Positions 17,071 through 63,495 are shown, counted from the stretch's first letter. The stretch is 64,000 bases of DNA from Pseudomonadota bacterium (GCA_040756595.1 JBFLYR010000004.1:22695-86694), one strand, 5' to 3'. Notes: generated by a model not told the origin, from the sequence alone. A program made the numbers and translations.

Positions 17071-17093
17071 AAGTCGGCGCCGGCGAGACGGCA
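17070..17093 (+). repeat. 24-nt dispersed repeat, copy 3 (2 substitutions)
   Basis: AAAGTCGGCGCCGGCGAGACGGCA. Its first A is the last base of the nemA TGA stop codon. Confidence 0.9.
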
Positions 17094-17115: not shown

Positions 17116-18189
17116 ATGAAGCTTTCAGACCTTCCCGCCGATCTGCTGGCCGATCGGCCGCATCTGTTCTCTGCCGCCACCGTGCCGGTGACGGCGGACG
17201 ATATGGCGCGCATGCGGGAAGTGATCGACGCGGTCGAGCATGTGATTGCATTGAAAGTCGGCGCTGGTGAGACGGCAGCCGCAGCAGGGCACGGCGTCTT
17301 CATGGGCTACGACTTCCATCTGACGCCGGCCGGCCCGCAACTCATCGAGATCAACACCAATGCCGGCGGCGGGCTGCTCGCGGCATTGCAGGCGCAGCGC
17401 GACGACGTGCTGGCTGCCTACGCCGCGATGTTCCGCGCCGAATGCCCACGTGAACTCAAGGCGCTCGCCATCGTCGATGAACAGCCGGCGAGCCAGTACC
17501 TCTACCCGGAGTTCCTCGGCTTCAAGCAGTTGTTCGAGGCGCACGGCATCACGGCGGTGATCTGCGATCCGTCCGAACTGATGCTCTGCCACGGCAACCT
17601 TTGGCACGAGGAAACGAAGCTCGACCTCATCTACAACCGGCTCACCGATTTCGATTTTTCAATGCCGGCGCACGCGGTGCTGCGCGAGGCCTGGCGGCAG
17701 GGCGTGACGATCACGCCCAACCCGGTGCTGCACGCGCACTATGCCGACAAGAAGAACCTGATCGCTCTGACCGATGCCGCCCAACTGGAAGCTTGGGGCG
17801 TCGATGCCGGGACGCAACGCATCCTGCTCGATGGCATTCCACGCACCGAACAGGTTGCGACGGAACGTGCCGATGATTTCTGGCAGCGCCGCAAGCAACT
17901 GTTCTTCAAGCCGGCGCTGGGCTATGGCTCGAAGGGCTCATATCGCGGCGACAAGCTGACCAAGCGGGTGTTCGAGGAAATCCTCGCCGGCGACTATGTC
18001 GCGCAAGCCTTTGCTCCGCCGTCGACCGTCCCGCTTGATGTGGCCGGGGAAATGACCGAGCTCAAGGCTGATGTCCGCAACTATGTGTATCGTGGCGCGG
18101 TCCAACTGGTGGCAGCGCGCCTGTATCAGGGGCAGACGACGAATTTCAGGACACCGGGCGGCGGTTTCGCGAAGGTAATCGAGGCATGA
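17116..18189 (+). CDS. Uncharacterised protein, possibly ATP-grasp-like
   Basis: 357-aa ORF with good coding appearance. The motifs IEINTNAGGG and NFRTPGGGFA are reminiscent of ATP-grasp/GSP-synthetase-like folds. This is a weak, memory-based assignment. Confidence 0.5.
   Translation: MKLSDLPADLLADRPHLFSAATVPVTADDMARMREVIDAVEHVIALKVGAGETAAAAGHGVFMGYDFHLTPAGPQLIEINTNAGGGLLAALQAQRDDVLAAYAAMFRAECPRELKALAIVDEQPASQYLYPEFLGFKQLFEAHGITAVICDPSELMLCHGNLWHEETKLDLIYNRLTDFDFSMPAHAVLREAWRQGVTITPNPVLHAHYADKKNLIALTDAAQLEAWGVDAGTQRILLDGIPRTEQVATERADDFWQRRKQLFFKPALGYGSKGSYRGDKLTKRVFEEILAGDYVAQAFAPPSTVPLDVAGEMTELKADVRNYVYRGAVQLVAARLYQGQTTNFRTPGGGFAKVIEA
17254..17277 (+). repeat. 24-nt dispersed repeat, copy 4 (2 substitutions)
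   Basis: AAAGTCGGCGCTGGTGAGACGGCA lies in frame in the 17116 ORF and is read as KVGAGETA. Confidence 0.9.
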
Positions 18190-22999: not shown

Positions 23000-25594
<2,595 letters not shown>

Positions 25595-28426: not shown

Positions 28427-29584
28427 TTATTGTAGCTCGTCAAGTCCGTAGAGATCGGGGAAGAAGCGGATGCGGCCATCGTCGCCGGGCAGCGCAGTGA
28501 GATAGGCAATCACCACCGGCAGGGGTTCCTGCAGGTGCAGCGTAGAGGAAATGCCTTTCGCCATCGCAACCTCGATGCGTGCCTGATCCCAGTCTGCTTG
28601 CGGGGCAAGAACGAACTTGGCCAGCGCCAGCGGTTCCTCGACGCGGATGCAGCCGTGGCTGAAATCGCGTCGCGCCTTGTTGAACAGGCGGACAGCCGGG
28701 GTGTGATGCAGGTAGATGTTGTCACTGTTGGGGAACACGAACTTGATGCCGCCCAGCGCATTCTTCGGCCCCGGCCGCTGGCGGATGCGCAGATTGCCCT
28801 CCAGTACTGCGGCCAGGTTGTCATCCGACAGCGTGGTGTCGGTACCTCCCGCGCGACTATAGAACTCGAAGCCCTGTTCTTCGAAGTAGGCCGGATCACT
28901 GCGCAGCTTGGGAATCGTCTCCTGGCGTGCGATCGACGGCGGCACGTTCCAATACGGGCTGAATTCGATGTAGCGCATTTCCTCGACGAACAGTGGCGTG
29001 CGCGTCTTCAGCGCACTGCCGACGATGATTTTCATGTGCAGCTTTTCCGTGTTCCCTTCGAATGCGCGCAGCGAGAATTCCGGCACATTGACAAGCAGCC
29101 AGCGCGGCGAAAATGGCAACTGCTTCAGGCGTTCGATATTCAGCTCGATCTGGCGCGCGCGTTGTGCCGGAGGAACCTTGAGTTGGGCCAGCGTGTCCTT
29201 GCCGATCACGCCATCGGGTTCGAGGCCGTGGCGACGCTGGAAAGCAACGACACCCTCGACGAGCTTGCCTGCGTAGCGTGGTGGCACTTCGGTGTCGGCA
29301 GGCAGGTCGCCCAGGGCGACAAGGCGCCCGATCAGCAGGGCGAGTCCGGCGTAGGGTTTACCGGGTTCGAGTTTGCGGGGGATGGGGGGGAGCGGTTCGC
29401 TCCACGCGGCTTGTACTGTCGGGTCGGCAGCCAGTTGCCGATAGTGCGGTAGCGCCGTATCGAGCCCGTCGATCAGCGGGTTTGCCTGCGCCACGCCGAA
29501 GATCAGCAGGCCGGCCAGAAAGGCCAGTAACCGCCCGCCTATGCCAACGTTTGGGAGTCGGCGCTGGCGGGACGGCACAGGCAT
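28427..29584 (-). CDS. L,D-transpeptidase (YkuD domain with PG-binding domain; YcbB/LdtD-like)
   Basis: 385 aa with a signal peptide, the PG-binding-like VVAFQRRHGLEPDGVIG, and the catalytic HGCIRV motif. Confidence 0.85.
   Translation of the reverse strand: MPVPSRQRRLPNVGIGGRLLAFLAGLLIFGVAQANPLIDGLDTALPHYRQLAADPTVQAAWSEPLPPIPRKLEPGKPYAGLALLIGRLVALGDLPADTEVPPRYAGKLVEGVVAFQRRHGLEPDGVIGKDTLAQLKVPPAQRARQIELNIERLKQLPFSPRWLLVNVPEFSLRAFEGNTEKLHMKIIVGSALKTRTPLFVEEMRYIEFSPYWNVPPSIARQETIPKLRSDPAYFEEQGFEFYSRAGGTDTTLSDDNLAAVLEGNLRIRQRPGPKNALGGIKFVFPNSDNIYLHHTPAVRLFNKARRDFSHGCIRVEEPLALAKFVLAPQADWDQARIEVAMAKGISSTLHLQEPLPVVIAYLTALPGDDGRIRFFPDLYGLDELQ
29554..29577 (+). repeat. 24-nt dispersed repeat, copy 8 (2 substitutions at nt 1-2)
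   Basis: GGAGTCGGCGCTGGCGGGACGGCA lies antisense within codons 3-10 of the L,D-transpeptidase and is read as PSRQRRLP. Confidence 0.88.
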
Positions 29585-33175: not shown

Positions 33176-33199
33176 AAAGTCGGCGCTGGCAGGACGGCA
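33176..33199 (+). repeat. 24-nt dispersed repeat, copy 9 (1 substitution)
   Basis: AAAGTCGGCGCTGGCAGGACGGCA begins immediately after the TGA stop codon of the 32348 methyltransferase. Confidence 0.93.
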
Positions 33200-35864: not shown

Positions 35865-35888
35865 TGCCGTCCCGCCAGTGCCGACTTT
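35865..35888 (-). repeat. 24-nt dispersed repeat, copy 10 (1 substitution)
   Basis: The + strand reads TGCCGTCCCGCCAGTGCCGACTTT. The copy is in gene-sense orientation and begins 6 nt after the ybiT stop codon. Confidence 0.93.
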
Positions 35889-37590: not shown

Positions 37591-38298
37591 ATGAAAACAC
37601 TGACATTGGAAAAAATCCTGCAATCGCAGGGCTTCGGCACGAAGAAAATGTGCCGCTACATGGTGCTGGACGGTTTGGTGGAAATCGGCGGCGAGGTTGT
37701 GGACGATGTGCGCGCCGAGTTCGATCCCGCCAATCTCGAATTCACGGTCGATGGCGCAGCGTGGCAATACCGCGAACACGTCTATCTCGCGCTCAACAAG
37801 CCGACTGGCGTCGAATGCTCGCGCCGGCCGGCGGTCCATCGCGGTGTGCTCTCGCTGCTGCCCGACCCATTCACCGCGCGCGACGTGCAGCCGGTCGGCC
37901 GGCTCGACCACGACACCACCGGCCTGCTGCTGCTTTCGGACGACGGCGCCTTTATCCATTCCCAGTCGCATCCCAAGCGCCATGTGCCGAAAACCTATGT
38001 GGCGACCACGCATGAACCCGTGACGCCGGAACTGGTTGCCAAGCTGCAAGCTGGCGTGAAGCTGATGGACGAACCGGCGCTGCTCAATGCACAGGCACGG
38101 CAGGTCGGCGCATGCGAGATCGAGATCGTGCTCGACATGGGCAAATACCACCAGGTGAAGCGCATGCTCGCCGCCGCCGGCAGCCATTGCGTCGCGTTGC
38201 GGCGTACCGCGATCGGACAATTGACGCTGGCGTCGCTCGGTCTAGCCGAGGGCGAATGGTGTTATCTGGACGAGGCACAACGCGCACTGCTGGTATAA
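37591..38298 (+). CDS. rsuA: 16S rRNA pseudouridine synthase (RsuA family; S4 domain plus catalytic GRLD)
   Basis: 235 aa from ATG 37591, with the motifs ALNKPTGVECS, VGRLDHDTTGLLLLSDDG, KTYVAT and GKYHQVKRM. Confidence 0.75.
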   Translation: MKTLTLEKILQSQGFGTKKMCRYMVLDGLVEIGGEVVDDVRAEFDPANLEFTVDGAAWQYREHVYLALNKPTGVECSRRPAVHRGVLSLLPDPFTARDVQPVGRLDHDTTGLLLLSDDGAFIHSQSHPKRHVPKTYVATTHEPVTPELVAKLQAGVKLMDEPALLNAQARQVGACEIEIVLDMGKYHQVKRMLAAAGSHCVALRRTAIGQLTLASLGLAEGEWCYLDEAQRALLV

Positions 38299-38321
38299 AA
38301 GTCGGCGTTGGCGGGACGGCA
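38298..38321 (+). repeat. 24-nt dispersed repeat, copy 11 (1 substitution)
   Basis: AAAGTCGGCGTTGGCGGGACGGCA. Its first A is the last base of the rsuA TAA stop codon. Confidence 0.93.
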
Positions 38322-39606: not shown

Positions 39607-40658
39607 CCGGCCAGAATATCCCGCGCGATCGCATCGATGCTGGCGGGGCTCAAATCCTCGGCGATGAATTTCGCGGCATCCGTGTAGTCGCGGAAATTCT
39701 TCTCCTGCGAACGCTGGTAGAGCGGGTCGTAGTGCTTTTCCAGAAGTTCATCGACCAGCGTGCGGAAGTCGCCTGCCTCGATCAGCGTGGTCCAGCGCGC
39801 CAGCGTTTCGTTGCTCTGCAGGCCGCGCAGATGGCCGAGTTGCCCGATCAGCCATTGTGGCCGGCTGAGAAAATATTCGTAGTCGCGCAGCAGAAAGTCG
39901 GCTCTGGCGGGACGGCACGCGTCGATACGGATGCAGGGCGCGGCGCGCATGGCGAAGATCAGCGCGTCGGGAACCTGCAAGCTGCCAATGCGGCGGCTTT
40001 CCGCCTCGACAAAAACAGGCTGTGACGCGTCGAGTCTGGCCAGCGCAGCGAGGAGGTTCGTCTCGAACATGCGCTGCGATGGCTGTGGCGCATCGGGCAG
40101 GTTGCCGAGCACCGAGCCCTTGTGGGCAGCGAGCTCCTCGAGGTGCAGTACCTGAGCGCCCTGCGCACCGAGCGCTTCGAGGATGCGACTCTTGGCGCTG
40201 CCGGTCGGGCCGGAAATCACCTTGTAAGTGAACTGCGTCGGCAGCGTCGCCAACGTGTCGACGACATGGCGGCGCCAGGTCTTGTAGCCGCCGTCGAGGC
40301 GGTGCGCGTCCCAGCCGATCTCGCGCAGAATATGGGTGAAGGCACCTGAACGTTGCCCGCCGCGCCAGCAATAGACGAGGGGACGCCAGCTTTTCGGCTT
40401 GTCGAGGAACTGTGCCTCGATGTGCGCGGCGATATTTTTTGCGACGAGGGCGGCGCCGACTTTCTTCGCCTCAAAGGGCGAAACCTGCTTGTAGAGCGTG
40501 CCGACCTTGATCCGTTCCTCGTTCGACAGCACCGGGCAACTGGTAGCGCTGGGGATGTGGTCGTCGGCGAACTCGGCCGGCGAACGCGCGTCGAGCAGCG
40601 CATCGAATTCGCCCAACTGGGCCAGCGTGGCGACGCCGCGGGATCGGTGTTCGGCCAT
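39603..40658 (-). CDS. selU: tRNA 2-selenouridine synthase (rhodanese plus P-loop)
   Basis: 351 aa with a rhodanese active site (YCWRGGQRS) and a Walker A motif (SGPTGSAKS). It is collinear with E. coli SelU/YbbB as recalled. Confidence 0.85.
   Translation of the reverse strand: MAEHRSRGVATLAQLGEFDALLDARSPAEFADDHIPSATSCPVLSNEERIKVGTLYKQVSPFEAKKVGAALVAKNIAAHIEAQFLDKPKSWRPLVYCWRGGQRSGAFTHILREIGWDAHRLDGGYKTWRRHVVDTLATLPTQFTYKVISGPTGSAKSRILEALGAQGAQVLHLEELAAHKGSVLGNLPDAPQPSQRMFETNLLAALARLDASQPVFVEAESRRIGSLQVPDALIFAMRAAPCIRIDACRPARADFLLRDYEYFLSRPQWLIGQLGHLRGLQSNETLARWTTLIEAGDFRTLVDELLEKHYDPLYQRSQEKNFRDYTDAAKFIAEDLSPASIDAIARDILAG
39894..39917 (+). repeat. 24-nt dispersed repeat, copy 12 (1 substitution)
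   Basis: AAAGTCGGCTCTGGCGGGACGGCA lies antisense inside selU and is read as CRPARADF. Confidence 0.93.
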
Positions 40659-41942: not shown

Positions 41943-43184
41943 ACGTGCGGCGGCCACGCCGCTCCTGACCGCGCCTTCGAGCGTGGCAGGGTAATCCCCA
42001 GCCACGTAGTCGCCCGCCAGCCAGACGTTCGGCAACCCGGTTGCTGTTGGTGGTCGCTCCAGGCTTGGCGTACAGGCGAAGGTGGCGCGCTTTTCCTCGA
42101 TCACCCAATGCTTGAGTGGCGGTCGCAGGCCGGGCAGCAGCGCGGCGATCTGGGCATGGATGGAAGCGGCCAGCGCGTCGTGATCGAGTTCCTGCCACGG
42201 GCCGGTGCCGCTGATGACTGCCGCGAGGATGCCGGGTTGGCCACAGAGCGCGCCGCGGTCGAAAATCCACTGGGCATAACCATTGTCCAGGCCGATCATC
42301 GGGAAGGGCAGCAGCGTGGCACCGGGATAGGCGAGGTAGCAGGTGGCGATGGGTTGCCAGTCGAACCGGAACCGTGCGGCAATCTCTGGCAGCAGCGCCG
42401 CCAGATGGTAGGGCGCGACGGCGATGACCTTGTGGTCGAAGCGGCCGAGTTCGTTGAGTTCCGCCAGCGTCCGGATGCGGGTGCCGCGGACGACACGGCC
42501 GCCATGACTTGCGATGAAACGTGCCGCCGGCTCGGGGAACAGGCTGGAAAAATCGGTCGCCGGCAGCAGCAGGTCGGAGGCCGCTCGATCGGCGGCGAGG
42601 CTGTCGCGCAGCACATTGAGGAAAACCTGTGCCGAAGCGCTGGCGACGGGTGTGTTGAGCGCGGCGAGGCAGAGCGGTTCCCAGAGGAAGCGCCGCACGC
42701 GTTCGGGTTGCCGATGGGCGGAGAAGAGGTCGGCGGCGCTCAAGTCTTCGGGCAAGCGGAAGTTGCGCGCCTGTTGCGCGCGCATGAAACGGATGGCGGC
42801 AATCTTGTCCTTGAACGAAAGCCCGCGGGCCGTGAGCAGCGCCCAGCCGAGATGCAGCGGAGCCGGCAGATTGGGCGCGGCCACTTTGACTTGTCCGGGG
42901 AACTCCAGATGCAAGAACTCACGCTTTAGTGGCTTTAGTGCCGTCCTGTCAGCGCCGACTTTTTCCATCAAGCGCAGAGTTTCGCGATAGGCACCGACGA
43001 GGATGTGCGCGCCGTTGTCGACGGTCATGCTGTCGAGCGTGACGGCACGGGCGCGGCCGCCGAGCGTGTGAGAAGCCTCGAAAACTTCGACGGCCACGCC
43101 GGCCTCTGCCAGTTCGACCGCGCTGGCGAGGCCGGCGTAACCCGCCCCAATCACGGCTACTTTCGTGGCTACGCGCGCAGCCAT
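41907..43184 (-). CDS. hpnE: Hydroxysqualene dehydroxylase (FAD-dependent amine-oxidase family)
   Basis: 425 aa from ATG 43184 with the dinucleotide fold VAVIGAGYAGLASAVELA. It is the last gene of an hpnC-hpnD-hpnE arrangement. Confidence 0.8.
   Translation of the reverse strand: MAARVATKVAVIGAGYAGLASAVELAEAGVAVEVFEASHTLGGRARAVTLDSMTVDNGAHILVGAYRETLRLMEKVGADRTALKPLKREFLHLEFPGQVKVAAPNLPAPLHLGWALLTARGLSFKDKIAAIRFMRAQQARNFRLPEDLSAADLFSAHRQPERVRRFLWEPLCLAALNTPVASASAQVFLNVLRDSLAADRAASDLLLPATDFSSLFPEPAARFIASHGGRVVRGTRIRTLAELNELGRFDHKVIAVAPYHLAALLPEIAARFRFDWQPIATCYLAYPGATLLPFPMIGLDNGYAQWIFDRGALCGQPGILAAVISGTGPWQELDHDALAASIHAQIAALLPGLRPPLKHWVIEEKRATFACTPSLERPPTATGLPNVWLAGDYVAGDYPATLEGAVRSGVAAARSILRETSGHQS
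42939..42962 (-). repeat. 24-nt dispersed repeat, copy 13 (2 substitutions)
   Basis: The + strand reads TGCCGTCCTGTCAGCGCCGACTTT. The copy lies in sense and in frame in hpnE and is read as KVGADRTA. Confidence 0.9.
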
Positions 43185-44002: not shown

Positions 44003-44823
44003 AATGCTTTCCAGAGAACGCGCGGCCAATCGAGTGCGCTGAGTACCGGACGCCGATTGAAGACGTCGTAGTCGGCCGCTTCGATCTTGGCCAGAATGCA
44101 CAGGCCGCCGGCGACGATGGCGCGGATTTCCATGCCGATGCGACCCGGCAGATCGTGGCCGAGCGATGCGCCGCTCAGCATCAGCGCGCGGGCACGCTCG
44201 ACCTGAAAGCGCATCAGTGCGCAAAAGTCGGCGCTGGCGAGACGGCTGCTCAGGGACTGTTCGGTCACGGCAAAACGCTTCATGTCTTCCTGCGGCAAAT
44301 AGATGCGGCCATTGTGCCCCTTATCGAGGTCGATGCCGACATCCTGCCAGTGATTGATGAGCTGCAGGGCGGAACAGATGGCGTCCGAGCGGCGCAGCTT
44401 GTCCGGGGTGGTGGTACCAAAGAGGTGCAGCAGCAAGCGGCCGACCGGATTCGCCGAACGGCGGCAGTAGTCCATCAACTCATCGTAACTGGCGTAGCGG
44501 TCCTTGACGACATCCTGCGCGAAGGCGTCGAGCAGGTCGCGAAAGAGCTGGAGGGGGAGTTTGTACTCTTGGATGTGCGGCCGCAGCTGCAGGAAAACCG
44601 GGTGTGCCGTCGGTTCGCTACGCTCGATGCGATCCAGTTCGGCCTGATAGCCGGCCAGCAGGCGCAGGCGTTCTTCCGGTGGCAGGCTGCCTTCATCGGC
44701 GAAATCGTCTGCCGAACGGGCGAAGACGTAGATCGCCGTTACGGCAGGTCGCAAGTGCGCCGGCAGCAAGAGCGAAGCAACGGGGAAATTCTCGTAGTGA
44801 TCCGGTTTTTCGGGCGGGGCCAT
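43999..44823 (-). CDS. hpnC: Squalene synthase HpnC
   Basis: 274 aa with the motifs HYENFPVAS, YVFARSADDFADEG and INHWQDVGIDLDKGHNGRIYLP. Confidence 0.82.
   Translation of the reverse strand: MAPPEKPDHYENFPVASLLLPAHLRPAVTAIYVFARSADDFADEGSLPPEERLRLLAGYQAELDRIERSEPTAHPVFLQLRPHIQEYKLPLQLFRDLLDAFAQDVVKDRYASYDELMDYCRRSANPVGRLLLHLFGTTTPDKLRRSDAICSALQLINHWQDVGIDLDKGHNGRIYLPQEDMKRFAVTEQSLSSRLASADFCALMRFQVERARALMLSGASLGHDLPGRIGMEIRAIVAGGLCILAKIEAADYDVFNRRPVLSALDWPRVLWKAL
44224..44247 (+). repeat. 24-nt dispersed repeat, copy 14 (2 substitutions)
   Basis: AAAGTCGGCGCTGGCGAGACGGCT lies antisense inside hpnC and is read as SRLASADF. Confidence 0.88.
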
Positions 44824-48380: not shown

Positions 48381-50816
<2,436 letters not shown>

Positions 50817-51897: not shown

Positions 51898-51912
51898 GAG
51901 TTGCAGATTCCC

Positions 51913-52239: not shown

Positions 52240-52633
52240 CCTGCATGTCGGCACCGAACACCCCGGTCGGTACCGGGCGTCCGAGTGCAGTGCCCAGCGC
52301 GGCGACGAAGCGTTCAAACATCGGTTGCGAAAAATCGGCTCTGGCGGCACGGCTCCATGAGGGGCGGTTGCCCTTCTTCACCGACGCGTAGAGCGTGAAT
52401 TGCGACACGGCGAGAACCTCGCCGCCGCTGTCGACGACGCTGAGGTTCATCACGCCTTGCGCATCCGAGAAGATGCGCAAGCCAAGCAGTTTGCGCACCA
52501 TCCAGTCGACGTCGGCGCCAGTATCACTGTCCTCGAAGCCGGTCAGCACCAGCATGCCAGGGCCGATGCTACCGGTGGTATTCCCGGCGACCGTGACGGA
52601 AGCGCATGTAACCCGCTGTACGACGACTCTCAT
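52181..52633 (-). CDS. dtd: D-aminoacyl-tRNA deacylase
   Basis: 150 aa with [23 protein letters not shown] and [15 protein letters not shown]. It is collinear with E. coli Dtd. The 639-aa track ORF is this gene plus an antisense shadow of recC. Confidence 0.92.
52331..52354 (+). repeat. 24-nt dispersed repeat, copy 15 (degenerate, 4 substitutions)
   Basis: AAAATCGGCTCTGGCGGCACGGCT lies antisense inside dtd and is read as SRAARADF. Confidence 0.6.
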
Positions 52634-52684: not shown

Positions 52685-55600
52685 ATGCTGCACATCCACC
52701 ATGGCAATCGTCCGGACAGCCTCGTCGCCGCGTTGACGACGCTGTTGCGCGTCGATCCGCTGCCGCTGCTGGAACCGGAAACCATCGTCGTCCCCTCGAC
52801 CGCGATGGCGCGCTGGCTGGGCTTCCAGCTTGCGGACGGGCTGGGGATCGCGGCCCAGAATGCCTTCGTCTTTCCGGCGTCCTACGTCTGGCAATTGTTC
52901 GGCCGCGTGCTGCCCGACGTGGCGACGAGCAATCCCTTCGACCGGGATGCAATGCATTGGCGCCTGCTGCGTTTGCTGGGTGACAGTCGCGCACCGGAAA
53001 TCCGCCATTACCTCGACGGGGATGACGGTGCACGCCAGTACGAACTGGCGGGAAAGCTTGCCAGCCTGTTCGATCGTTATCTCGTCGAGCGGCCCGACTG
53101 GATCGCGGCATGGAGTGCAGGCAAGCGGCTCGGCCTCGGTCCGGATGAAGTCTGGCAATCCGGACTCTGGCGCACGTTGCGCGCCGACCTGCCAGAGGTT
53201 GCGACGGAACATCCGCGCGAGCGCTTCCTCGCGGCATTGCGTGCCCAACCGGCCGTGCGTGCGCGCCTGCCGCGCCGACTCAGCCTGTTCTGTGTCGAGG
53301 CGATGCCTGCGCTGTATTGGGAAGTCTTTGTCGGACTCGCAGTGTGGCTCGACGTGCATGTCTTCGTGCTGGCGCCCTGTCGCGAATACTGGGGCGACAT
53401 CGAGAAAATGCGTGAACGGCTGCGCATGGAACTCGAACAACCCGAGGCGGCCCTGCTTTATGAAACCGGCCATCCGCTGCTGGCCTCGCTGGGCCGGGCG
53501 CGCCAGCATGCGGTGCTGCGGCTTGCCGATGCTGCAACGCAGACCGCCAGTGCCGAACATGAGTATTTCGTTGCTCCGCCCTCGACATTGTTGGGTGCCT
53601 TGCAGCGCGACATCCTTGACCTTTCGGCCAGTCGCGCGGTAGCGATGGACGCCACGCTGCAGATCCACGACTGCCACGGTGCGCAGCGCGAAGCAGAGGT
53701 ACTGCTCGACCGCCTGCTCGATCTGTTCGAACGGCTGCCGGATTTGCGACCAGCCGACATTCTGATCCTCACGACCGACATCGAAGCCTACGGTCCGATC
53801 ATCGAGGCCGTGCTGGCACATGCGCCGCGGGAGCGGCGTATTCCATGTACCGTGGCCGACCGGCCGCTCGCCATTGCGCCGCTCTGGCGCGCGCTGCGTC
53901 AGCTGTGCGTCGTGGCGGCGGGTGAGTTCGATGCGGAAAGCGTGCTGTCCCTGCTTGACGAACCCGCGCTGCGGCGCGCATTCGACATCGATGAAAACGA
54001 ATTGCCGCGACTGCGCGACTGGGTGGGCGAGGCTGGCATCCGCTGGGGCATCGACGGCGCGGCGCGTGCCCGACATGGTCTGCCGGCGGAAGATGCCCAC
54101 AGCTGGCGTGCCGGGCTACAGCGGCTGCTACTGGGCGTGGCGTTGCCGGATGCGCCCGAGCGTCTGTGGCAGGGCATGCTGCCGGTGACGGGAATCGAAG
54201 GCGAGCGGGCTGAGTTGCTGGGCCGTTTCGTCGATTTCACCGAAGCTTTGTTTGGGCTGAGTGAAAAAGTCGGCGCTGGCAGGACGGCATCGGAATGGTG
54301 TCGGCTGCTTGCCGCGACGCTGGAACACTTTCTCGCACCCGACGAAGCGGAGGAGGGGCAGGCGCAAGGCTTGCGGGAAACGCTGACCCGGCTCGGCGAA
54401 CTGGCGGATTCCGCGCGATGCGCCACCCGGCTGCCGTTGTCGGTGCTATTGCGTGAAATTGATGAACGGCTGAAAGAGCAGGCGCCCGCACAGGCATTCG
54501 TTTCCGGCACGGCGACGATCGCGGCGCTGCAACCCGGCCGTCCCGTTTCCGCGCGTGTCATCTGTCTCGTCGGCATGAACGACGGGGCCTGGCCGCGCCC
54601 GGCGACGCCACAGGGTTTCGACCTGATGGCCGCGCATCCGCGTCCCGGTGATCGCAACCGGCGCGGCGAGGAGCGTCATGCTTTCCTCGAAGCACTGCTG
54701 TGCGCGGGAGATGCCCTGATCGTCACGTATGCCGGGCGCGATCCGCGCAGCAACCTTGAATTGCCGCCCGCTGCACCGCTCGCCGAACTGATCGACACTC
54801 TTGTGGCAATGACCGGGAAAGCGGCCGATGCGCTGGTAGTGCAGCATCCATTGCAACCCTTTGGCAGCGCGTATTTCGATGGTAGAGACACGCGTATCTT
54901 CAGTTTCGATGCCGAGCATTGCCGACAAGCCTCCGTGCCGGCAGCCTCCGCATTCCTTGGCCGGAAGGTGCGTGTCGAAGCGCTTGACGTTGATGAAATC
55001 GACCTGCCGGAACTGCAGCGCTTTTTTGCTCACCCGGTGCGTCATTTCCTGCGCGAGCGCATGGGCATCCATCTCGAAGAGTCCGAGGAATTGCTCGACA
55101 TGCACGAACCCTTCGTGCCGAATGCGCTCGAAGCCTACCGGTTGCGGGAGGCGCAGTTCGCAGGGCTGGTGGCCGGCCACCCGGTTGATGAGGTGACCGC
55201 GCTATTGCATGCCCGTGGCTGGTTGCCGCAGGGGGTGGCGGGCGACCTGGCCGCGCGCGCGGCGCACGACGAGGCATTGCCGCTCTGGCAGAGCGCGCAA
55301 GCCTGGCTCGATGCAGGGCGCCAACCTGACTGCGCGGTGGAATTCGCAGCGCACGGGATACGCCTGAGCGGCCGGCTCGACGGCCTGACCGACCGCGGAC
55401 TCTGGCGCGTGCGCCACGGCAAGCTGCGCGCGAAGGACCGCTTGCGCCTGTGGCTCGATCATCTGCTGCTGAATGTCGCGGCGCCGGCCGGTGTGCCGCT
55501 GCACAGCAGCTTGATTGCCCGCGATGCGTTCATGCAGCTCGTACCGGAACCGCGTGCGCGTGAGGTTCTGGCTGGTCTGCTGGCGCTCTATCGTGATGGC

Positions 55601-55831
55601 TTGCTGCAGGCCTTGCCCATCTATCCGGAAACGGCGTGGGCCTGGTTGGAACAGAAGAACTGGCGCCGGGAGTGGGAGGGCGATGCTTTCAACTACAAGC
55701 CTGGCGAGCGCGATGACGCATATGTGCGCCTGGCCTTGCGCGATCGCCCGGAAGACCCGCTCGGCGCTGAGTTCCAGCAATTGGCAGAGCACATCTTTGG
55801 CCCCCTGAAACAGAAAGTCGGCGATGGCTGA
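52685..55831 (+). CDS. recC: Exodeoxyribonuclease V gamma subunit
   Basis: 1048 aa, beginning MLHIHHGNR...L, as is typical of RecC. It is followed by overlapping recB and recD genes. Confidence 0.9.
54266..54289 (+). repeat. 24-nt dispersed repeat, copy 16 (1 substitution)
   Basis: AAAGTCGGCGCTGGCAGGACGGCA lies in frame in recC and is read as KVGAGRTA. Confidence 0.93.
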
Positions 55832-55837
55832 ACGGCA
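55814..55837 (+). repeat. 24-nt dispersed repeat, copy 17 (3 substitutions)
   Basis: AAAGTCGGCGATGGCTGAACGGCA. The substitutions create the recB ATG (55824) and the recC TGA (55829-55831). Confidence 0.75.
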
Positions 55838-58800
55838 CTTCGTTCCCCTCGATTCGCCTTTCGAGGTCGAACTGACCGGCACGCGCCTGCTCGAAGCCGG
55901 CGCCGGTACCGGCAAGACCTGGATGCTGGCCGCGCTGGTCCTGCGCCTGCTGCTTGAACAGCAGATCGAGATTGGCAAGATCCTCGTCGTCACCTACACA
56001 CGCGCAGCCAGCGGCGAGCTGCGCGGCCGCGTTCGTGCCCGGCTGGTCGAGGCGCTCGCGGCTTTCGATGCGGGTCGCGCGGATGAACCCTACTTGCAAG
56101 CGCTGGTCGAGCGCATCGGTACCACGGGTACCGCTGGCGCCACCGCTGCCAGGGTACGCCTGCGGCTGGCGATCGAGAGCTTCGACGAAGCGTCCATCTT
56201 CACGATCCACGGTTTCTGCCAGCGCGCGCTCGGCGAAACGGCCTTCGCCGCCGGCCAAGCTTTCGAACGTGAATTGATTGCCGATCAGGGCGAGTTGCTC
56301 GCCGCCGTGGCACGTGATGCCTGGCGCAGGGAAATGGCGACGGCCTCGCCGCTCTGGGCGCAATGGCTGATTGACCACGTGCAGGGACCGGAGGGGCTGG
56401 CCGCCATCGTCAGATCGCATCTGGGACGCGTCGATGCGCGACTTGAAGCCCCCGCTCAGGTGGATCGGAAAGCCGCGGAGCAGCGCTTTGCCGCTGCCTT
56501 CGTAATGGTCAGGGACCTCTGGAAAGCCGATGCGGCGCGGATTCTCGACTGGCTGGCTGGCGCGAAACTGAACCAGCAAAGCTACAGCGCGAAGAAGATG
56601 CAGCCGCGCAGCGTTGCGCTCGGATTGTGGCTGTCCGCTGAACCACCCCTGTCGCCCCTGCTGCCTTTGCCCGAGGGCATCGAACATTTCGGGCTGGCGA
56701 AGATCGCGGCCAAGTTGAACAAAGGCGGTCAATTGCCGCAGCATGCTTTCTTCGCTGCCATGGACGAGCTGCTGCAATCCGCTGGCGAATTGCAGGCGGC
56801 TTGCGAAAGCGCGACGCGCCGGCTGCTGCAGGATTTCCTGCTGACTGCGCGAACCGGGCTTGCGGAGAGAAAACGGCGCAGTGGCCAGCAGACCTACGAT
56901 GACCTGCTGGTCGACCTCGCGCAGGCGCTCGACGGCCCGGCCGGGCCCCGACTGGTTGATAGCCTGCGGGCGCGCTACCGCATCGCCCTCGTCGATGAGT
57001 TCCAGGACACCGATCCGCTGCAGTTGCGAATCTTCATGTGTATCTTCGGTACCGACGAACGGCCGCTGATTTTCGTCGGCGATCCGAAACAGGCGATCTA
57101 CGGTTTCCGTGGTGCCGACGTATTCGCCTATCTCAAGGCGCGCACGCAAGCGGACACCGGTTATGCGCTGTTGGAGAATCGGCGCTCCGATCCGCCGCTG
57201 CTCAAGGCGGTGAATGCGCTGTTCGCCCGGCCGCTGCCGTTCCTGCTCGACGGCATGCCTTACGAGCCTTCCCGTGCGGCGGACAGGGTGCGGGAGATCT
57301 GCCGGATCGATGATGACGCCGCGCCGCTGTCACTCTGGACGATGCAAGCGCCCGAGGGCGGAAAAGGCTTCCCGAAGGACACGGCGCGCACGATGGCTGC
57401 CGAGGCCGTCGCCGCCGATATCGCGCGGCTGTTGGGCCTGAGCGCCACGGGGCGCGCGACGCTCGGCGAACGTCCTCTGGGCGGCGGCGATATCGCCGTG
57501 CTGGTGCGCCGGCATCGGGATGGTGATCTGGTCCGGCAGGCGCTGGCGCGGCACGGCATCCCCAGCGTCAGCGGCGGTGGTGGCAGCGTCTGGCACAGCG
57601 ATGAGGCAGTCGAGATCGAACGGCTGCTGCTCGCGGTGGCCGCGCCGGCGCGCGAGGGCTTGGTGCGCGCGGCATTGGCGACGATATTGCTCGGCGCGGA
57701 TGCAGCGCAGCTGGCAGCATGGCTGCACGATGAACCGGCGTGGAGTGCGCGCCTCGATTGCTTTCATGATGATCTGCTGCTATTCCGCGAACGCGGCTTC
57801 ATGGCGATGTGGCGCCGGCTGCTGCGCCGCGAAGGTGTTGTCGCGCGCGTGCTGGAACGGCCGGATGGCGAGCGGCGGCTGACCAACTACCGCCATCTGG
57901 CCGAATTGCTGCAGGCCGCCGAACAGGGCGCTGCGCTCGATGTCGAGGGGCTCGCGCGTCATATCGCGCAGCAGCGGCAGGCACCGGAAGGCGAGGAGAG
58001 CCAGTTGCGGCTGGAAAGCGACGCGCATCTCGTGCGCATCGTCACCCTGCATGCCGCGAAGGGTTTGCAATACCCCATTGTGTATTGTCCCTTCCTCTGG
58101 CTGGGACCCGAGGAGGACAAGACGGGCTGGCCCGTATTGGCACATCATGAGGGCAAAGCCTGCCTCGACTTCGGCTCGGAAGGCATCGACGGCCTGCGGG
58201 CGGCGGCGGATCGCGAGGACGCGGCCGAGGAGCTCCGGCTCGCCTACGTCGCGCTGACGCGCGCCGAACATCGCTGCATCCTTGCCTGGGGCAAGGTGAA
58301 CAACTGCGCCCGCTCGCCGCTCGCCTGGCTGCTGTTCGGGCCGCGCGAATCCGTGGCCGAAGAACCGCGTGTCTGGCTGGCGCGTTGGCTGGAAACCCAT
58401 GACGAAAGCGCGGCGCTGCACGCGCTCGAAGCGGGCCTCGACAGAGCCTTGAAGGTGATGCCGTTGCCGGGCGACGGTAGCGCGCCGCTGCCGCCCGCGG
58501 AAACGGTGCGAGCACATCGGCCACGGGACTTCATGAGCAAGGTGCCCGCGCCGTGGCGGGTTCAGAGCTTCTCGTCGCTCGCTGCCCGTCTCTCCGAAGA
58601 GGCGGAAACCGCCGATCGCGACGCGGTCGTGCCAGCCAGTGCCGTACCGCCAGCGCCGACTTTTTCGAATATTCAAAACTTCCCGCGCGGCACACGTGCC
58701 GGTAGCTGCCTGCATGCCTTGTTCGAGCGCATCGATTTCCAGGGCCGCACGCCAGTCGGCCCGACCGCCGCTGCGACGCTGGTGGCCTTCGGTTACGCGC

Positions 58801-59273
58801 CCGACTGGCAGCCGGTGCTCGAGCGACTGGTGGCGGATGTCCTGGGCACGACTTTGAATGCGGATGGGCTGCGGTTGGCCGACGTGCCGCGCGGCGAACG
58901 ATTGGTCGAGCTCGAGTTCACCTTCCCGTTTGGTTCGGCAGCGGAGCGTGCCGGCTACATGAAGGGCTTCATCGACCTCGTGTTCCGTCATGCAGGTCGC
59001 TGGTACATCGTCGACTGGAAGTCGAACTGGCTGGAAGACTATGGGCCGGCGTCCCTCGCCGCCGCCATGCAGGCGCATCGCTACGAGTTGCAGGCGCGCA
59101 TCTACGCGGCCGCCCTCAAGCGGGCGCTGGCTGTGCGCGAGCCGCAAAATGACTGGGAGAGTAGCTTCGGCGGCATGTTCTACCTGTTCCTGCGCGGCAT
59201 GGCGCCGGGCAGTTCGGACGGGATCCATTTTTTCCGGCCAGCGATTGACGAGATTGCGGAATTTCTGTCATGA
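55824..59273 (+). CDS. recB: Exodeoxyribonuclease V beta subunit (helicase-nuclease)
   Basis: 1149 aa with UvrD-like motifs (EAGAGTGKTW, DEFQDTD, RSDPPLL) and a C-terminal PD-(D/E)xK nuclease (GFIDLVF..YIVDWKSN). Confidence 0.93.
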   Translation: MAERHFVPLDSPFEVELTGTRLLEAGAGTGKTWMLAALVLRLLLEQQIEIGKILVVTYTRAASGELRGRVRARLVEALAAFDAGRADEPYLQALVERIGTTGTAGATAARVRLRLAIESFDEASIFTIHGFCQRALGETAFAAGQAFERELIADQGELLAAVARDAWRREMATASPLWAQWLIDHVQGPEGLAAIVRSHLGRVDARLEAPAQVDRKAAEQRFAAAFVMVRDLWKADAARILDWLAGAKLNQQSYSAKKMQPRSVALGLWLSAEPPLSPLLPLPEGIEHFGLAKIAAKLNKGGQLPQHAFFAAMDELLQSAGELQAACESATRRLLQDFLLTARTGLAERKRRSGQQTYDDLLVDLAQALDGPAGPRLVDSLRARYRIALVDEFQDTDPLQLRIFMCIFGTDERPLIFVGDPKQAIYGFRGADVFAYLKARTQADTGYALLENRRSDPPLLKAVNALFARPLPFLLDGMPYEPSRAADRVREICRIDDDAAPLSLWTMQAPEGGKGFPKDTARTMAAEAVAADIARLLGLSATGRATLGERPLGGGDIAVLVRRHRDGDLVRQALARHGIPSVSGGGGSVWHSDEAVEIERLLLAVAAPAREGLVRAALATILLGADAAQLAAWLHDEPAWSARLDCFHDDLLLFRERGFMAMWRRLLRREGVVARVLERPDGERRLTNYRHLAELLQAAEQGAALDVEGLARHIAQQRQAPEGEESQLRLESDAHLVRIVTLHAAKGLQYPIVYCPFLWLGPEEDKTGWPVLAHHEGKACLDFGSEGIDGLRAAADREDAAEELRLAYVALTRAEHRCILAWGKVNNCARSPLAWLLFGPRESVAEEPRVWLARWLETHDESAALHALEAGLDRALKVMPLPGDGSAPLPPAETVRAHRPRDFMSKVPAPWRVQSFSSLAARLSEEAETADRDAVVPASAVPPAPTFSNIQNFPRGTRAGSCLHALFERIDFQGRTPVGPTAAATLVAFGYAPDWQPVLERLVADVLGTTLNADGLRLADVPRGERLVELEFTFPFGSAAERAGYMKGFIDLVFRHAGRWYIVDWKSNWLEDYGPASLAAAMQAHRYELQARIYAAALKRALAVREPQNDWESSFGGMFYLFLRGMAPGSSDGIHFFRPAIDEIAEFLS
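58640..58663 (-). repeat. 24-nt dispersed repeat, copy 18 (1 substitution)
   Basis: The + strand reads TGCCGTACCGCCAGCGCCGACTTT. The copy lies antisense in recB, is read as AVPPAPTF, and sits just before the nuclease domain. Confidence 0.93.
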
Positions 59274-60859
59274 ATCCATCGCCGCTCATCACGCATTTTG
59301 CGCGCTTCCTAGGTGGCACCGATGAACAGGCGAAGCTGGCGGCGGCGCTGGCCGTGCAGGCGACGCAGGCAGGCCATGTCTGCGCCGATCTGGATTGCGA
59401 ATCCGGCTGGGGACCATGGGCGGAAACACTGGATGCCGATCAGCGGGCAGAGTTCCGCGTGCAGTTGCCGCACTTGGCCATCGTCGGTGGCGCGGACGAG
59501 TGGACGCCATTGGTCTGGGATGGCCAGCGGCTCTACCTGCGGCGCTATTTCGATTACGAACGGCGCGTTGCCGCCGATCTGCTGGCGCGCATCGCAACGC
59601 CCGACATACCCGGAGCGCCCGATCTGCAAGCCGAATCACGACTGGCGGAACGCTTCGCCGATGGCGGCCAGCGCAACGCCGCGCGCATCGCGCTGTCGCA
59701 TCGGCTGGCCTTGATTTCCGGCGGCCCCGGTACCGGCAAGACGCACACGCTGGCGCGCATTATCGGCTTGCTGCAGGAACAGAATCCGTCCCTGCGTATC
59801 GCACTGGCCGCGCCGACCGGCAAGGCGGCCGCACGCATGACGGAGGCGCTGCAGGCGGCGGGCGTCGCGACGGAGGCAGGTGCGCAAACCCTGCATCGCC
59901 TGCTCGGCATGCGTGCCGACGGCAGCGGGTTTCGCCATCGCAACGAATATCCGCTCGCCTGCGATGTTCTGGTCGTTGATGAGGCCTCGATGATCGACCT
60001 GTCGCTGATGGCGCATCTGCTCGACGCCTTGCCCGCAGCGGCGCGGCTGATCCTGCTTGGCGACCGTGACCAGCTCGCCGCCGTCGAGGCGGGTGCGGTG
60101 TTCGCCGACCTTTGCGACAGTCCGCGCCTCGATGTCTGCGTGGCACTGCTGACGACGAGTTTCCGGTTCGGCGGCGACAGCGGCATCGGACAACTGGCGG
60201 AACGCTTGCGTAGCGGCGATGCGGAGGGCGTCGTCGCGCAATTGCGGGCAGACGGCAATGATCTCGTCTGGCAGGTAGAGGAGGATACGGTCGTCGGCGC
60301 TGCGCGCGCGGGTTACCGCGAATATCTGGAAGGCGTGGCATCGGCAGCGCCTCCGCACGAATTGTTCGAACGCTTCAATCGCTTCCGGGTACTGTGTGCC
60401 CACCGGCAGGATGTCGTGACGATCAATCGTGCCCTGGCAGGTGGCAGCCTGCACCCGACGCCGGGCATGCCGCTGCTGGTGTTGCGCAACGATTCACTGC
60501 TGCGCGTGTTCAACGGGGATATCGGCCTCGTGTTGCCCGATCCGGCCGATGGCCAGCTCAAGGCTTGCTTCCCGGGCACTGCTGAAAACGCATCGCGCTG
60601 GATTTCGCTGTCCCGCCTGCCGGAATGGGAGCCGGCCTGGGCGATGACGGTGCACAAGTCGCAGGGATCGGAGTTCGCGCAGGTGCTGCTGGTGCTGCCG
60701 TCCGCCGTTTCCCCGGTGACGACGCGCGAACTGGTCTATACCGGCATCACGCGGACGAAACAGGGCGTCGCACTCCGGGCGGGCGAAACGGTATTGCGTG
60801 CGGCCGTCGAGCGCCGTGCCGAACGCATGTCCGGCCTGCGCGAACGTCTGCAGCAGTAA
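59270..60859 (+). CDS. recD: Exodeoxyribonuclease V alpha subunit
   Basis: 529 aa with SF1 helicase motifs (GGPGTGKTHT, VVDEASMID, VHKSQGSEF). Confidence 0.92.
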   Translation: MNPSPLITHFARFLGGTDEQAKLAAALAVQATQAGHVCADLDCESGWGPWAETLDADQRAEFRVQLPHLAIVGGADEWTPLVWDGQRLYLRRYFDYERRVAADLLARIATPDIPGAPDLQAESRLAERFADGGQRNAARIALSHRLALISGGPGTGKTHTLARIIGLLQEQNPSLRIALAAPTGKAAARMTEALQAAGVATEAGAQTLHRLLGMRADGSGFRHRNEYPLACDVLVVDEASMIDLSLMAHLLDALPAAARLILLGDRDQLAAVEAGAVFADLCDSPRLDVCVALLTTSFRFGGDSGIGQLAERLRSGDAEGVVAQLRADGNDLVWQVEEDTVVGAARAGYREYLEGVASAAPPHELFERFNRFRVLCAHRQDVVTINRALAGGSLHPTPGMPLLVLRNDSLLRVFNGDIGLVLPDPADGQLKACFPGTAENASRWISLSRLPEWEPAWAMTVHKSQGSEFAQVLLVLPSAVSPVTTRELVYTGITRTKQGVALRAGETVLRAAVERRAERMSGLRERLQQ

Positions 60860-61155: not shown

Positions 61156-63495
61156 CTATGACGCCGGCTGCAGGCCGGTCGGCTTGAGTTTGGACGGAAT
61201 GGCGTGGCCCTTGCGGGCACGCTGGCCGCGATAGGCGGCGGCATCCTTGCCGGACAACTTCCAGTCGGTCGGTTTACCCCCTCGGCCACTACCGGTGACG
61301 ATGAAACTGTCGGCACCGACAGCGACGGCGGCCAGCTCGTCCTTGGCGTCAAGCGTCTGGATGATGGTGCCGCGCCCCTTGGCCATGGTCTTGAGTTCGG
61401 CGAGCGGGAAGAGCAGCAGCCGGCCGCAGGCCGTAATCGCTGCTGCCGTCCCGCCAGCGCCGACTTTTGCCGGGACGAGCGGCTTCTCGCCCTTGTCGAG
61501 CGACATGAAGGCCTTGCCGGCGCGGTTGCGCGAGACGAGATCGGCAATGCCGGCGATGAAGCCGTAGCCGCCGGAATTGGCGAACAGGTACTGCGTTTCC
61601 GGCGCATCGGTGAGCGCGTGGGCAAGCTTGCTGCCGTCCTGGAAGTCGACCAGCGTGGTGATCGGCACCCCGTCGCCGCGACCGCCCGGCAGGTCGGCCA
61701 CGCGTACGCTGTACGCTCTGCCATTGGTGTCGATGACGACCAGCGGCCAGATCGTGCGGCTTTCCTGAACGATATAGGGGAAGTCACCGGTCTTGTATCC
61801 GATGCTGGCCGGATCGATGCCATGGCCCTGGCGCGTGCGCACCCAGCCGTTCTTAGAGACGATCACGGTCACCGGCTCGTCGGGGATCGCGACTTCCGCG
61901 GCGGTCACCGGGGCGACGGCCTCAATTAGCGTACGGCGCTCGTCGCCGTATTTCTTCGCGTCCTCGGTGATCTCGCGCACGACGAGTTTGGTCAACTCCT
62001 TGCGGTCTTCGAGGATGCGGCGCAGTTCCTTCGCTTCCTCGGCCAGCGCCTTCTGTTCCTGCTCGATCTTGATGCCTTCGAGTTTCGCGAGCTGGCGCAG
62101 GCGGATTTCGAGGATGTCCTCGGCCTGAATCTCCGAAAGCTTGAACTTGGCCATCAGTTCGGCCTTGGGTTCGTCGGCCTCGCGGATGGTCTTGATGATC
62201 TTGTCGATCGACAGGAAGGCGAGCAGGCGGCCAGCGAGGATGTGCAGGCGGCGCTCGACTTCGCAGAGGCGGTGGGCGGAACGACGCTCGACGGTGGCAT
62301 GGCGGAACTGCACCCATTCGTGCAGCACCTGCAGCAGGTTTTTTTGCGCCGGCCGGCCATCGGTGCCCATCATGGTCATGTTGACCGACACGTTGGCTTC
62401 GAGGCTGGTGCGCGCGAGCAGTACGGCCATGAACTCGTCCTGCGGCACCTTCGACGTGCGCGGCTCCAGCACGATGCGCACGGGGTCCTTTTCGTTCGAT
62501 TCGTCGCGCACGGCGTCGAGCACGCCGAGCATCACCTGCTTGAGGTTCTTCTGCTCCTGCGAGACATCCTTCTTGCCCGGGCGTGCTTGCGGGTTGGTGA
62601 CGGCCTCGATTTCCGAGAGTACTTGCGCCGTGGAAACACCATGCGGCAGTTCGTAGACGATGACGCGCCACTGGCCGCGCGCCAGTTCCTCGATGCGCCA
62701 GCGGCAGCGCATGCGGACGCTGCCGCGGCCGGATTCGTAGGCGGCGCGGATGTCGGCATGGAGCGAGATGATCTGGCCGCCGCCGGGAAAGTCCGGGCCG
62801 GGCAGGGCGGCAAGCACTTCATCGAGCTGCGCACTCGGTTTGCGGATCACCAACTTGAGTGCTTCAGCCACTTCGCGCAGGTTGTGCGGTGGAATCTCGG
62901 TGGCCATGCCGACGGCGATGCCCGAGGCACCGTTGAGCAGCACGAAGGGCAGGCGGGCGGGCAGCAGCGACGGCTCGGTCATCGTGCCGTCATAGTTGGG
63001 CACGAAGTCGACCGTGCCCTTGTCGATCTCCGCTAGCAGCAGTTCTGCAATCGGTGTCAGGCGGCATTCGGTGTAGCGCATCGCCGCCGCGCCGTCGCCG
63101 TCGCGCGAGCCGAAGTTGCCTTGGCCGTCGACCAGCGGATAGCGCAGCGAGAAGTCCTGGGCGACGCGCACCATGGCGTCGTAGACGCTGCTGTCGCCGT
63201 GGGGGTGGAACTTGCCGATGACGTCGCCGACCACGCGCGCCGACTTGACGTGCTTGGCCGTCGACGGCAGGCGCATGTCGTTCATCGCGTGGAGGATGCG
63301 GCGCTGCACCGGCTTCAAGCCGTCTTCGACCTGCGGCAGGGCGCGCGATTTCACCACGCTCATCGCGTAGGCGAGGTAGGCGCGCTCTGCATAACTGTCG
63401 AGGGGCAGCGCCTCGCCTTCTGCAAAAGTCGGCTCTGGTGGGACGGCAGGGGGCGGCAGATCTGCCGCTGCTTCGAAAAGATCAGGCGTGTTCAT
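61156..63495 (-). CDS. parC: DNA topoisomerase IV subunit A
   Basis: 779 aa with the motifs [11 protein letters not shown], the AAMRYTE catalytic Tyr block and a C-terminal beta-pinwheel. Its start overlaps the parE stop codon (ATGA). Confidence 0.93.
61444..61467 (-). repeat. 24-nt dispersed repeat, copy 19 (perfect)
   Basis: The + strand reads TGCCGTCCCGCCAGCGCCGACTTT. The copy lies in sense and in frame in the parC C-terminal domain and is read as KVGAGGTA. Confidence 0.95.
63425..63448 (+). repeat. 24-nt dispersed repeat, copy 20 (2 substitutions)
   Basis: AAAGTCGGCTCTGGTGGGACGGCA lies antisense in the parC N-terminal extension and is read as AVPPEPTF. Confidence 0.9.

Follow-up and report, generated by a model that had tools for sequence, protein, structure and literature searches.

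A copy of a dispersed 24-bp repeat family spans the recC-recB junction in Sulfuricystis and its relatives

The junction of the recC and recB genes in an uncultured betaproteobacterium of the Rhodocyclaceae type, a relative of Sulfuricystis, consists of a copy of a short dispersed DNA repeat that departs from the family consensus only at the bases required for the recB start codon and the recC stop codon. The same modified copy is found at the orthologous site in relatives, including cultured S. thermophila. Overall, the best explanation, and a highly probable one, is that a genome-wide pressure for the motif and selection for the start and stop codons share the 24 bases of this junction. Taken alone, the junction is a modest curiosity; the underlying repeat family, which is apparently undescribed and is present in cultured Sulfuricystis, is the more significant lead.

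The junction copy

The window (the whole stretch of DNA analyzed here, 64,000 nucleotides in length) contains 19 copies of the 24-mer AAAGTCGGCGCTGGCGGGACGGCA at ≤4 mismatches (Table 1), against 0.00 to 0.01 copies per 64 kb expected from shuffled sequences. The claim of the initial annotation that a repeat copy with 21 of 24 consensus bases lies at 55814 was thereby borne out. For a match with ≤3 mismatches, such as this one, the expectation is 1.3e-4 per 64 kb, or ~0.006 per 3 Mb, so chance is excluded. The copy departs from the consensus only by C11A, G16T, and G18A and, because T12, G13, and G17 are already consensus bases, these three changes exactly make an ATG at positions 11 to 13 and a TGA at positions 16 to 18. 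An identity of 21/24 is the highest that can be attained while both codons are kept: the copy matches the motif at all 18 positions outside them, as well as at the 3 positions within them where consensus and codon coincide. None of the 18 other copies in the window has A11, T16, or A18.

As initially annotated, RecC ends with KQKVGDG and RecB begins with MAERHF, and both open reading frames were confirmed by equivalog-level profiles. The proposal that the three departures are precisely those that create the ATG and the TGA also stands, with one nuance. RecB codon 3 (GAA, Glu) also uses A18 as its middle base, and this A is retained in a related genome (L165, see below) in which the recC stop codon lies upstream and the TGA is not needed, so that A18 cannot be solely “for” the stop codon. 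The two genes of the window overlap by 8 nt, ATGGCTGA.

Table 1. The recBCD genes and the copies of the 24-mer in the window
Feature	Coordinates	Strand	Remarks
recC (exodeoxyribonuclease V gamma)	52685..55831	+	1048 aa; TIGR01450, 818 bits; P0001 100% identical
recB (exodeoxyribonuclease V beta)	55824..59273	+	1149 aa; TIGR00609, 791 bits
recD	59270..60859	+	recB-recD junction an ordinary ATGA overlap, for comparison
recB start ATG	55824..55826	+	from C11A, copy positions 11-13; sole in-frame start from 55809 to Walker A
recC stop TGA	55829..55831	+	from G16T and G18A, copy positions 16-18
Junction copy of the 24-mer	55814..55837	+	AAAGTCGGCGATGGCTGAACGGCA; 21/24 to consensus; encodes RecC K-V-G-D-G-stop and RecB M-A-E-R-H
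Copy between convergent genes	9939..9962	+	exact consensus
Copy in DinG-like helicase gene	13427..13450	+	sense, frame 0
Copy at gene end	17070..17093	+	begins on the final base of the upstream gene's TGA
Copy	17254..17277	+	sense, frame 0
Long form in moeA	19544..19648	+	14 nt of the 24-mer, 67-nt insert, full 24-mer at 19625-19648; in frame
Copy in clpB	24563..24586	+	sense, frame 0
Copy in YkuD-domain gene	29554..29577	+	antisense
Copy after methyltransferase gene	33176..33199	+	starts directly after TGA
Copy after ABC-F gene	35865..35888	-	9 nt past the stop, same strand
Copy at gene end	38298..38321	+	begins on the final base of the upstream TAA; T at position 11
Copy in rhodanese-domain gene	39894..39917	+	antisense
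Copy, intergenic	42939..42962	-	
Copy in squalene/phytoene synthase gene	44224..44247	+	antisense
Copy in dtd	52331..52354	+	diverged, 4 mismatches; antisense; gap-free vs E. coli Dtd
Standard copy in recC	54266..54289	+	frame 0, KVGAGRTA; orthologous in all clade genomes; gap-free vs outgroup
Copy in recB	58640..58663	-	antisense, read AVPPAPTF; orthologous across the clade
Copy in parC	61444..61467	-	sense, frame 0; no insertion vs E. coli ParC
Copy in parC	63425..63448	+	antisense; carries exact GCTGGTGG

The repeat family in the window

The 24-mer is a discrete unit of ~34 bits without conserved flanks and is found about once per 3 kb. Fourteen of the 19 copies (74%) are intragenic, residing in ordinary housekeeping genes in both orientations with respect to transcription. 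All seven sense copies are read in one and the same frame (frame 0, encoding KVGAGGTA; P about 1e-3). Copies in recC, recB, and parC map to variable loops or linkers of the encoded proteins. The spacing of the copies is more even than random (coefficient of variation, 0.59; P=0.009). In the window, 15 copies are oriented along the G-rich plus strand and 4 along the opposite one (P=0.019), compared to a ratio of ~5:4 in the other loci. Since four of the five copies located in minus-strand genes are also on the plus strand, the orientation bias follows the chromosome strand and not transcription. The GC skew of the plus strand is positive from ~16 kb onward.

Two parts of the window are free of copies, namely, positions 1-9938, a low-GC, T-rich region with large nuo-like membrane-protein ORFs, and positions 44248-52330, which include the tig-clpP-clpX-lon block. 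Their distribution fits avoidance of highly constrained coding sequences. Gene ends are favored sites, since four intergenic copies (at 17070, 38298, 33176, and 35865) start at, or within 9 nt of, the stop codon of a gene on the same strand. The recC/recB copy is the extreme case of such placement.

Wherever the aligned proteins allowed a clear verdict, the 24-mer was found to replace preexisting sequence without gaps, as in RecC compared to that of Denitratisoma and in ParC and Dtd compared to their E. coli counterparts. The ClpB copy is ambiguous: compared with E. coli ClpB, the region that holds it has 7 extra residues and lies in a loop of variable length.

Conservation of the junction in relatives

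A search for RecC proteins returned P0001, the window's own protein, and 73 further full-length sequences with 58 to 89% identity, including those from the cultured organisms Sulfuricystis thermophila and S. multivorans; these were followed by a gap down to 45% identity (Denitratisoma). The genome collection does not include the window's own species; its nearest genomes showed ~70% identity in RecB, and a metagenome scan with RecB yielded only relatives at ≤45% identity. Junction DNA was compared at ten loci, representing nine genomes of the clade and Denitratisoma as the outgroup.

The 24-mer was present in all nine clade genomes, with 4 to 9 copies per ~22 kb. Orthologous copy positions were found in dtd (antisense), inside recC, at the junction, in recB (antisense), and in parC (one sense and one antisense). 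At the junction, orthologous copies were recognized in L001, L002, L161 (S. thermophila), L163, L165, L167, and L168, so that the comparison suggested by the initial annotation revealed the same modified copy at the same site. The junction reads GGCGATGGCTGAACGGCA in L001, L002, and L163, and ATGACTGA, with 14A, in S. thermophila and L168, in which the RecC tail is KVGDD and RecB begins with MTERHF. The 5′ half of the copy is partly decayed in L167 and is lost in S. multivorans (L162), which uses GTGACTGAACGGCA. In L165, the recC stop codon is located just upstream (GTGAAAAAGTCAGTCATGGCGGAACGGCG), position 16 is again the consensus G, and positions 11 to 13 are still ATG. The L166 junction does not contain a copy (13/24 matches), yet ATGACTGA and the M-T-E-R sequence are kept, with different codons. 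Thus, the 8-nt overlap ATGNCTGA persists without an intact copy in both L162 and L166 (ATG/GTG-ACTGA, encoding M/V-T-E-R).

The C-terminal tails of the 74 clade RecC proteins have the form K[VLI][GS]D[GD] in 29 cases and a near variant of it in 13; another 14 share only the final D[GD], and 18 end differently. A copy-encoded tail can thus be recognized in about 40 to 55% of these proteins, in every subclade, and in none of the four outgroup RecCs. No copy of the 24-mer was detected in the 23 kb examined in Denitratisoma, whose recC and recB genes are joined by a plain ATGA overlap preceded by GGAG and whose RecB begins with MNIRPL. The ~30 more distant RecBCD loci had unrelated junctions without copies. 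The junction sequence is therefore confined to genomes that carry the 24-mer family; an identity shared with genomes lacking the family, which would have undermined the original proposal, was not found.

The simplest reading of these sequences is that the copy was already at the junction in the ancestor of the clade and subsequently decayed several times. The junction copy would then be an ancient, clade-wide feature. Some of the conservation of its 3′ half could be due to selection at the protein level, given that L166 keeps M-T-E-R in other codons in the absence of the copy. In principle, the overlap itself could also predate the copy, as it is retained in L162 and L166, neither of which has an intact copy at this site.

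A second junction of the same kind

The question raised by the initial annotation, whether other operon junctions coincide with repeat copies, has a positive answer. In L165 (5255-5278) and L166 (5150-5173), a copy spans the infB-rbfA junction: the infB stop codon abuts or overlaps position 1 of the copy, and the 11A substitution produces the ATG that is the annotated rbfA start. In both genomes, RbfA begins with MAGRR or MAGRH, a literal translation of ATG-GCG-GGA-CGG-CR. The N-terminal sequence MAGR[HRQ], followed by a variable stretch, is found in ~100 of 120 related RbfA clusters. It is also seen in the RbfA of the window genome (P0200, encoded on the same 363,292-bp contig as the window), whose N terminus, MAGRH, is known from the protein. 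The MAERH start of RecB is equivalent to the MAGRH module of RbfA with G18A. As judged from their sequences, at least two junctions, recC-recB and infB-rbfA, are built on one module. Together with the data from the relatives, this second case supports the idea that the recC-recB junction was either built from a repeat copy or overwritten by one.

The recB start and translational coupling

The assignment of the recB start to position 55824 is well supported. The reading frame of recB is open from 55809 onward, after a TGA at 55806-8 and 15 nt before the ATG, and the next in-frame ATG, GTG, or TTG codon after 55824 is the ATG at 55923, which lies beyond the Walker A motif (GAGTGKT, codons 26 to 32); position 55824 is therefore the only usable start. 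In a comparison of 9 relatives, codons 6 to 32 of recB showed 38, 18, and 82 differences at codon positions 1, 2, and 3, respectively, which is a coding pattern, and this coding-type divergence sets in directly after the copy. The match to TIGR00609 begins at RecB residue 12, corresponding to profile position 3, so that the length of the N terminus fits as well. The same 8-nt overlap is present in independent public gene calls for L161, L162, L163, and L168. No sign of a RecB start elsewhere was thus obtained.

The predicted Shine-Dalgarno pairing at recB is −2.6 kcal/mol, and that of the other copy-borne starts ranges from −1.7 to −3.5 kcal/mol, compared to −6.4 kcal/mol for the GGAG of the outgroup and a median of −3.6 kcal/mol in the window. 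Given the weak pairing at copy-borne starts, RecB could be expected to be produced by termination-reinitiation. The overlap and the weak Shine-Dalgarno pairing indicate that translation of RecB is most likely coupled to that of RecC. The arrangement resembles the translationally coupled overlapping genes of the ATGA or TGATG type, in which the stop and start codons also overlap within one operon and the Shine-Dalgarno sequence is weak or absent. In contrast to the common 4-nt ATGA, used by the outgroup recC-recB pair and by the recB-recD pair of the window, the overlap here comprises 8 nt and its sequence is dictated by a genome-wide repeat.

Public recB gene calls differ in two of the genomes. 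In L165, recB is annotated from a GTG located 15 nt upstream of the copy ATG (L165 13162-13190), and in L167 from a position 192 nt downstream of the recC stop (L167 13142-13351). The L167 assembly seems to contain a frameshift in recB, as the ORF starting from the copy ATG has 101 codons. In both cases, the motif ATG is probably a better start than the one in the public record. For annotation purposes, an ATG at motif positions 11 to 13 probably marks a true start in these genomes even where a Shine-Dalgarno sequence is missing.

Constraint at the nucleotide level and dialects

The copies are constrained at the DNA level. In recB codons 2 to 5, which are part of the junction copy, third positions changed in 4 of 36 comparisons, versus 47 of 99 in codons 7 to 17 (Fisher P=1e-4). 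Similarly, third-position conservation within the internal recC and recB copies was 0.82 and 0.75, respectively, versus 0.48 and 0.46 in their flanks.

Individual genomes use their own variants, or dialects, of the motif. In L001, 7A is found in all 6 copies, including the one at the junction (RecC tail KVSDG), and in L002, 4C is found in all 4 copies, again including the junction (RecC tail KLGDG). The L165 dialect combines 7A and 24G, also at the junction, where it changes RecB His5 to Arg. The junction copy disagrees with the dialect of its genome in L168 (24G in 6 of 7 copies), in L167 (7A in all 4 nonjunction copies), and in L163 (4C at the junction versus 4G in the family). It thus follows the dialect of its own genome in three of the six informative genomes. 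A strict argument from covariation with the dialect, seemingly perfect in L001 and L002, was weakened when it failed in L163, L167, and L168. Such partial tracking of the family is to be expected, as additional coding constraints act on this copy.

Proposed explanation and its alternatives

According to the favored explanation, the genomes of this clade maintain a nonpalindromic 24-bp motif at the nucleotide level, about once per 3 kb, irrespective of what it encodes. In the clade ancestor, one copy would have come to span the end of recC and the beginning of recB. Two constraints would have acted on it thereafter, the motif pressure and selection for the recB start and the recC stop, and the outcome would be the sequence nearest to the motif that still holds ATG at positions 11 to 13 and TGA at positions 16 to 18. 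The RecC tail KVGDG and the RecB N terminus MAERH would then be plain translations of the motif, and the copy would replace the usual Shine-Dalgarno region. Synthesis of RecB would most likely fall to ribosomes that complete RecC 5 nt past the ATG and then initiate again there. As for what sustains the family, a pressure of the DNA-uptake-sequence type is most likely, in which biased uptake or recombination of motif-bearing DNA could lead to accumulation of the motif in place, by substitution.

The order of events could also have been the reverse, with an ancestral 8-nt overlap (ATGNCTGA) and an M-x-E-R N terminus existing first and the free positions being converted to the motif later. This scenario, which appears rather unlikely but deserves serious attention, agrees with the in-place origin of the other copies without insertions or deletions, with the ATG/GTG-ACTGA overlap and M/V-T-E-R sequence that L166 and L162 keep without an intact copy, with the 14 clade RecCs that retain only the D[GD] end, and with the lengths of the RecC tail and of the RecB N terminus, which resemble those of the outgroup. 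However, the outgroup has an ATGA junction and a different RecB N terminus (MNIRPL), and RecB residues 2 to 5 and the last five residues of RecC are direct translations of the motif. Furthermore, the independent rbfA case (MAGRH) demonstrates that the motif itself can donate an ATG and N-terminal residues, and the junctions without copies are scattered among those that have them, a pattern that decay fits better. The 24 nt of the motif correspond to exactly eight codons, a form with 81 additional nucleotides sits in frame inside copies in moeA of the window and in recC of L163 and L168, and the ClpB region is longer than in E. coli; all this would suit a mobile or insertion-derived 24-mer (similar to MITE, REP, or RPE elements) that landed between recC and recB, after which the junction was rebuilt. 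Such an origin is nevertheless improbable: in RecC, ParC, and Dtd, the 24 nt replaced existing sequence with no change in length; neither conserved flanks nor target duplications nor terminal inverted repeats surround the short copies; the motif lacks any potential to form a hairpin (z about 0); and orthologous positions are held across genomes with only 60 to 70% protein identity.

The presence of the motif in the recBCD genes might likewise be accidental if the motif were a strand-polar chromosome-maintenance signal, such as an extended Chi- or KOPS-like sequence or a protein-binding site. Its core, GCTGGCGG (motif positions 10 to 17), is one base away from the E. coli Chi sequence GCTGGTGG, and a few copies contain the exact Chi sequence, for example, the parC antisense copy of the window and the copy at 20761 in L162. 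The preference of 15 of the 19 window copies for the G-rich strand, which extends to minus-strand genes, and the even spacing of the copies point in the same direction. Still, the known sites of this kind have ~8 nt rather than 24 nt with 34 bits, the core varies between dialects (L165 has CATGGCGG and GCCGGCAG), and the near-balanced orientation in the other loci does not reproduce the strand bias, all of which makes this a poor candidate with little chance of being correct. The resemblance of the core to Chi may be a coincidence in a GC-rich genome. The combined action of motif pressure and start/stop selection thus remains the preferred explanation.

Comparison with uptake sequences and other repeats

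Short DNA sequences that promote uptake of self-DNA, DUS and USS, have been characterized with regard to their copy numbers, ORF fractions, frame bias, placement at positions of low conservation, dialects, and enrichment in the genes for RecBCD, and have been described in those studies only in Pasteurellaceae and Neisseriaceae (PMC2817400, PMC3630211, bioRxiv 10.1101/2025.10.24.684340). The 24-mer family shares many properties with the DUS of Neisseriaceae and the USS of Pasteurellaceae, including a density far above chance, genic and intergenic locations in both orientations, reading-frame bias, preference for poorly conserved residues and for sites just after genes, origin in place with no insertion or deletion, retention at orthologous positions, dialects, even spacing, peptides encoded by the motif within proteins, and presence in the RecBCD genes. 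The family behaves like uptake sequences, and its membership in this class is putative. It differs from them in several respects. At 24 nt and ~34 bits, the motif is far more information-rich than the known uptake sequences, which comprise 10 to 12 nt in DUS and a 9-nt core plus weak flanks in USS. Its density, ~0.3 per kb, is roughly three-fold lower than their ~0.8 to 0.9 per kb, its hosts belong to the family Rhodocyclaceae (the Sulfuricystis clade), and its possible strand polarity, seen as the 15:4 ratio in the window, is atypical of USS. Inverted pairs acting as terminators, which are common among DUS and USS although not essential, were not found among the 19 window copies. No publication on the 24-mer or on uptake sequences in Rhodocyclales came up in literature searches, and a limited check of the literature found no report of a DUS or USS that forms a start/stop overlap.

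By analogy with these systems, the 24-mer could tentatively be viewed as a third, independently evolved DNA-uptake-type signal, used by a clade of free-living sulfur-oxidizing Rhodocyclaceae (Sulfuricystis and its uncultured relatives), with an unusually long specificity of 24 bp, its own dialects, and a drive strong enough to rewrite operon junctions, such that copies would supply start codons and N-terminal residues to at least two housekeeping proteins (RecB MAERH and RbfA MAGRH) and the C-terminal tail and stop to RecC; this broader view is plausible enough to pursue, although the odds are somewhat against it. Uptake-type sequences have so far been seen in two families, in host-associated bacteria only. 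A family that evolves in this manner in environmental Rhodocyclaceae, a group with cultured members and fully sequenced genomes, would open self-DNA recognition to experiments in another lineage and on a much longer motif. The recC-recB junction illustrates clearly how a genome-wide pressure on the DNA sequence and ordinary gene function can share one set of bases: every position of the motif is kept except those required for the ATG and TGA, the motif sets the terminal residues of two proteins, and the same solution is found again at infB-rbfA.

The 24-mer is similar to REP/BIME and MITE sequences in being a short repeat with a high copy number. It differs from them in the lack of hairpin potential, in being mostly intragenic, in causing no change in length, and in the conservation of its positions across species. 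A REP- or MITE-type unit was accordingly rejected, as there was no hairpin, 74% of the copies were intragenic, and no indel was seen in three of the four tests. The idea of an RNA element was dropped as well: the Rfam search of the window returned only four tRNAs and no match to the 24-mer, and no significant fold was predicted for the 24-mer (z values, +0.37 and +0.14), the junction, or the long form.

Rickettsia palindromic elements (RPEs) are repeats that are inserted in frame in protein-coding genes. The 24-mer resembles them in being located inside ORFs and translated, and its 81-nt long form is an in-frame insertion. Unlike RPEs, it lacks palindromic symmetry and is ten-fold shorter, and in three of the four cases tested it does not represent an insertion.

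The long form and other observations

The long form, with its 81 added nucleotides, was also found in L163 (11582-11686) and at the same recC site in L168, always in frame, and encodes a peptide of ~27 aa, VGAGPSQADAPPVGGSEPGLRARGANK. According to the protein sequences, it is also present in the RecCs P0015, P0040, P0043, P0058, and P0070. Between genomes with RecC identities of only 63 to 81%, the 67-nt part is conserved at >90% identity; its opening bases, GCCGTCCC, are the reverse complement of motif positions 16 to 23. Searches with the long form found no plasmid match and no Rfam match. The long form resembles a small element able to insert into, or to duplicate, the motif.

The four tRNA genes of the window are located at 7722-7808 (minus strand), 8243-8316, 44879-44960, and 50853-50925; several ORFs drawn across them in the GC3-based gene map are spurious.

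The exact consensus 24-mer was also detected in 13 IMG/VR contigs classified as viral (L169-L181), which have ~0.22 copies per kb when near matches are included, a density that is uninformative in itself because these contigs were selected for a match. As this density is close to that of the host, the contigs may be prophages or fragments of the genomes of clade hosts.
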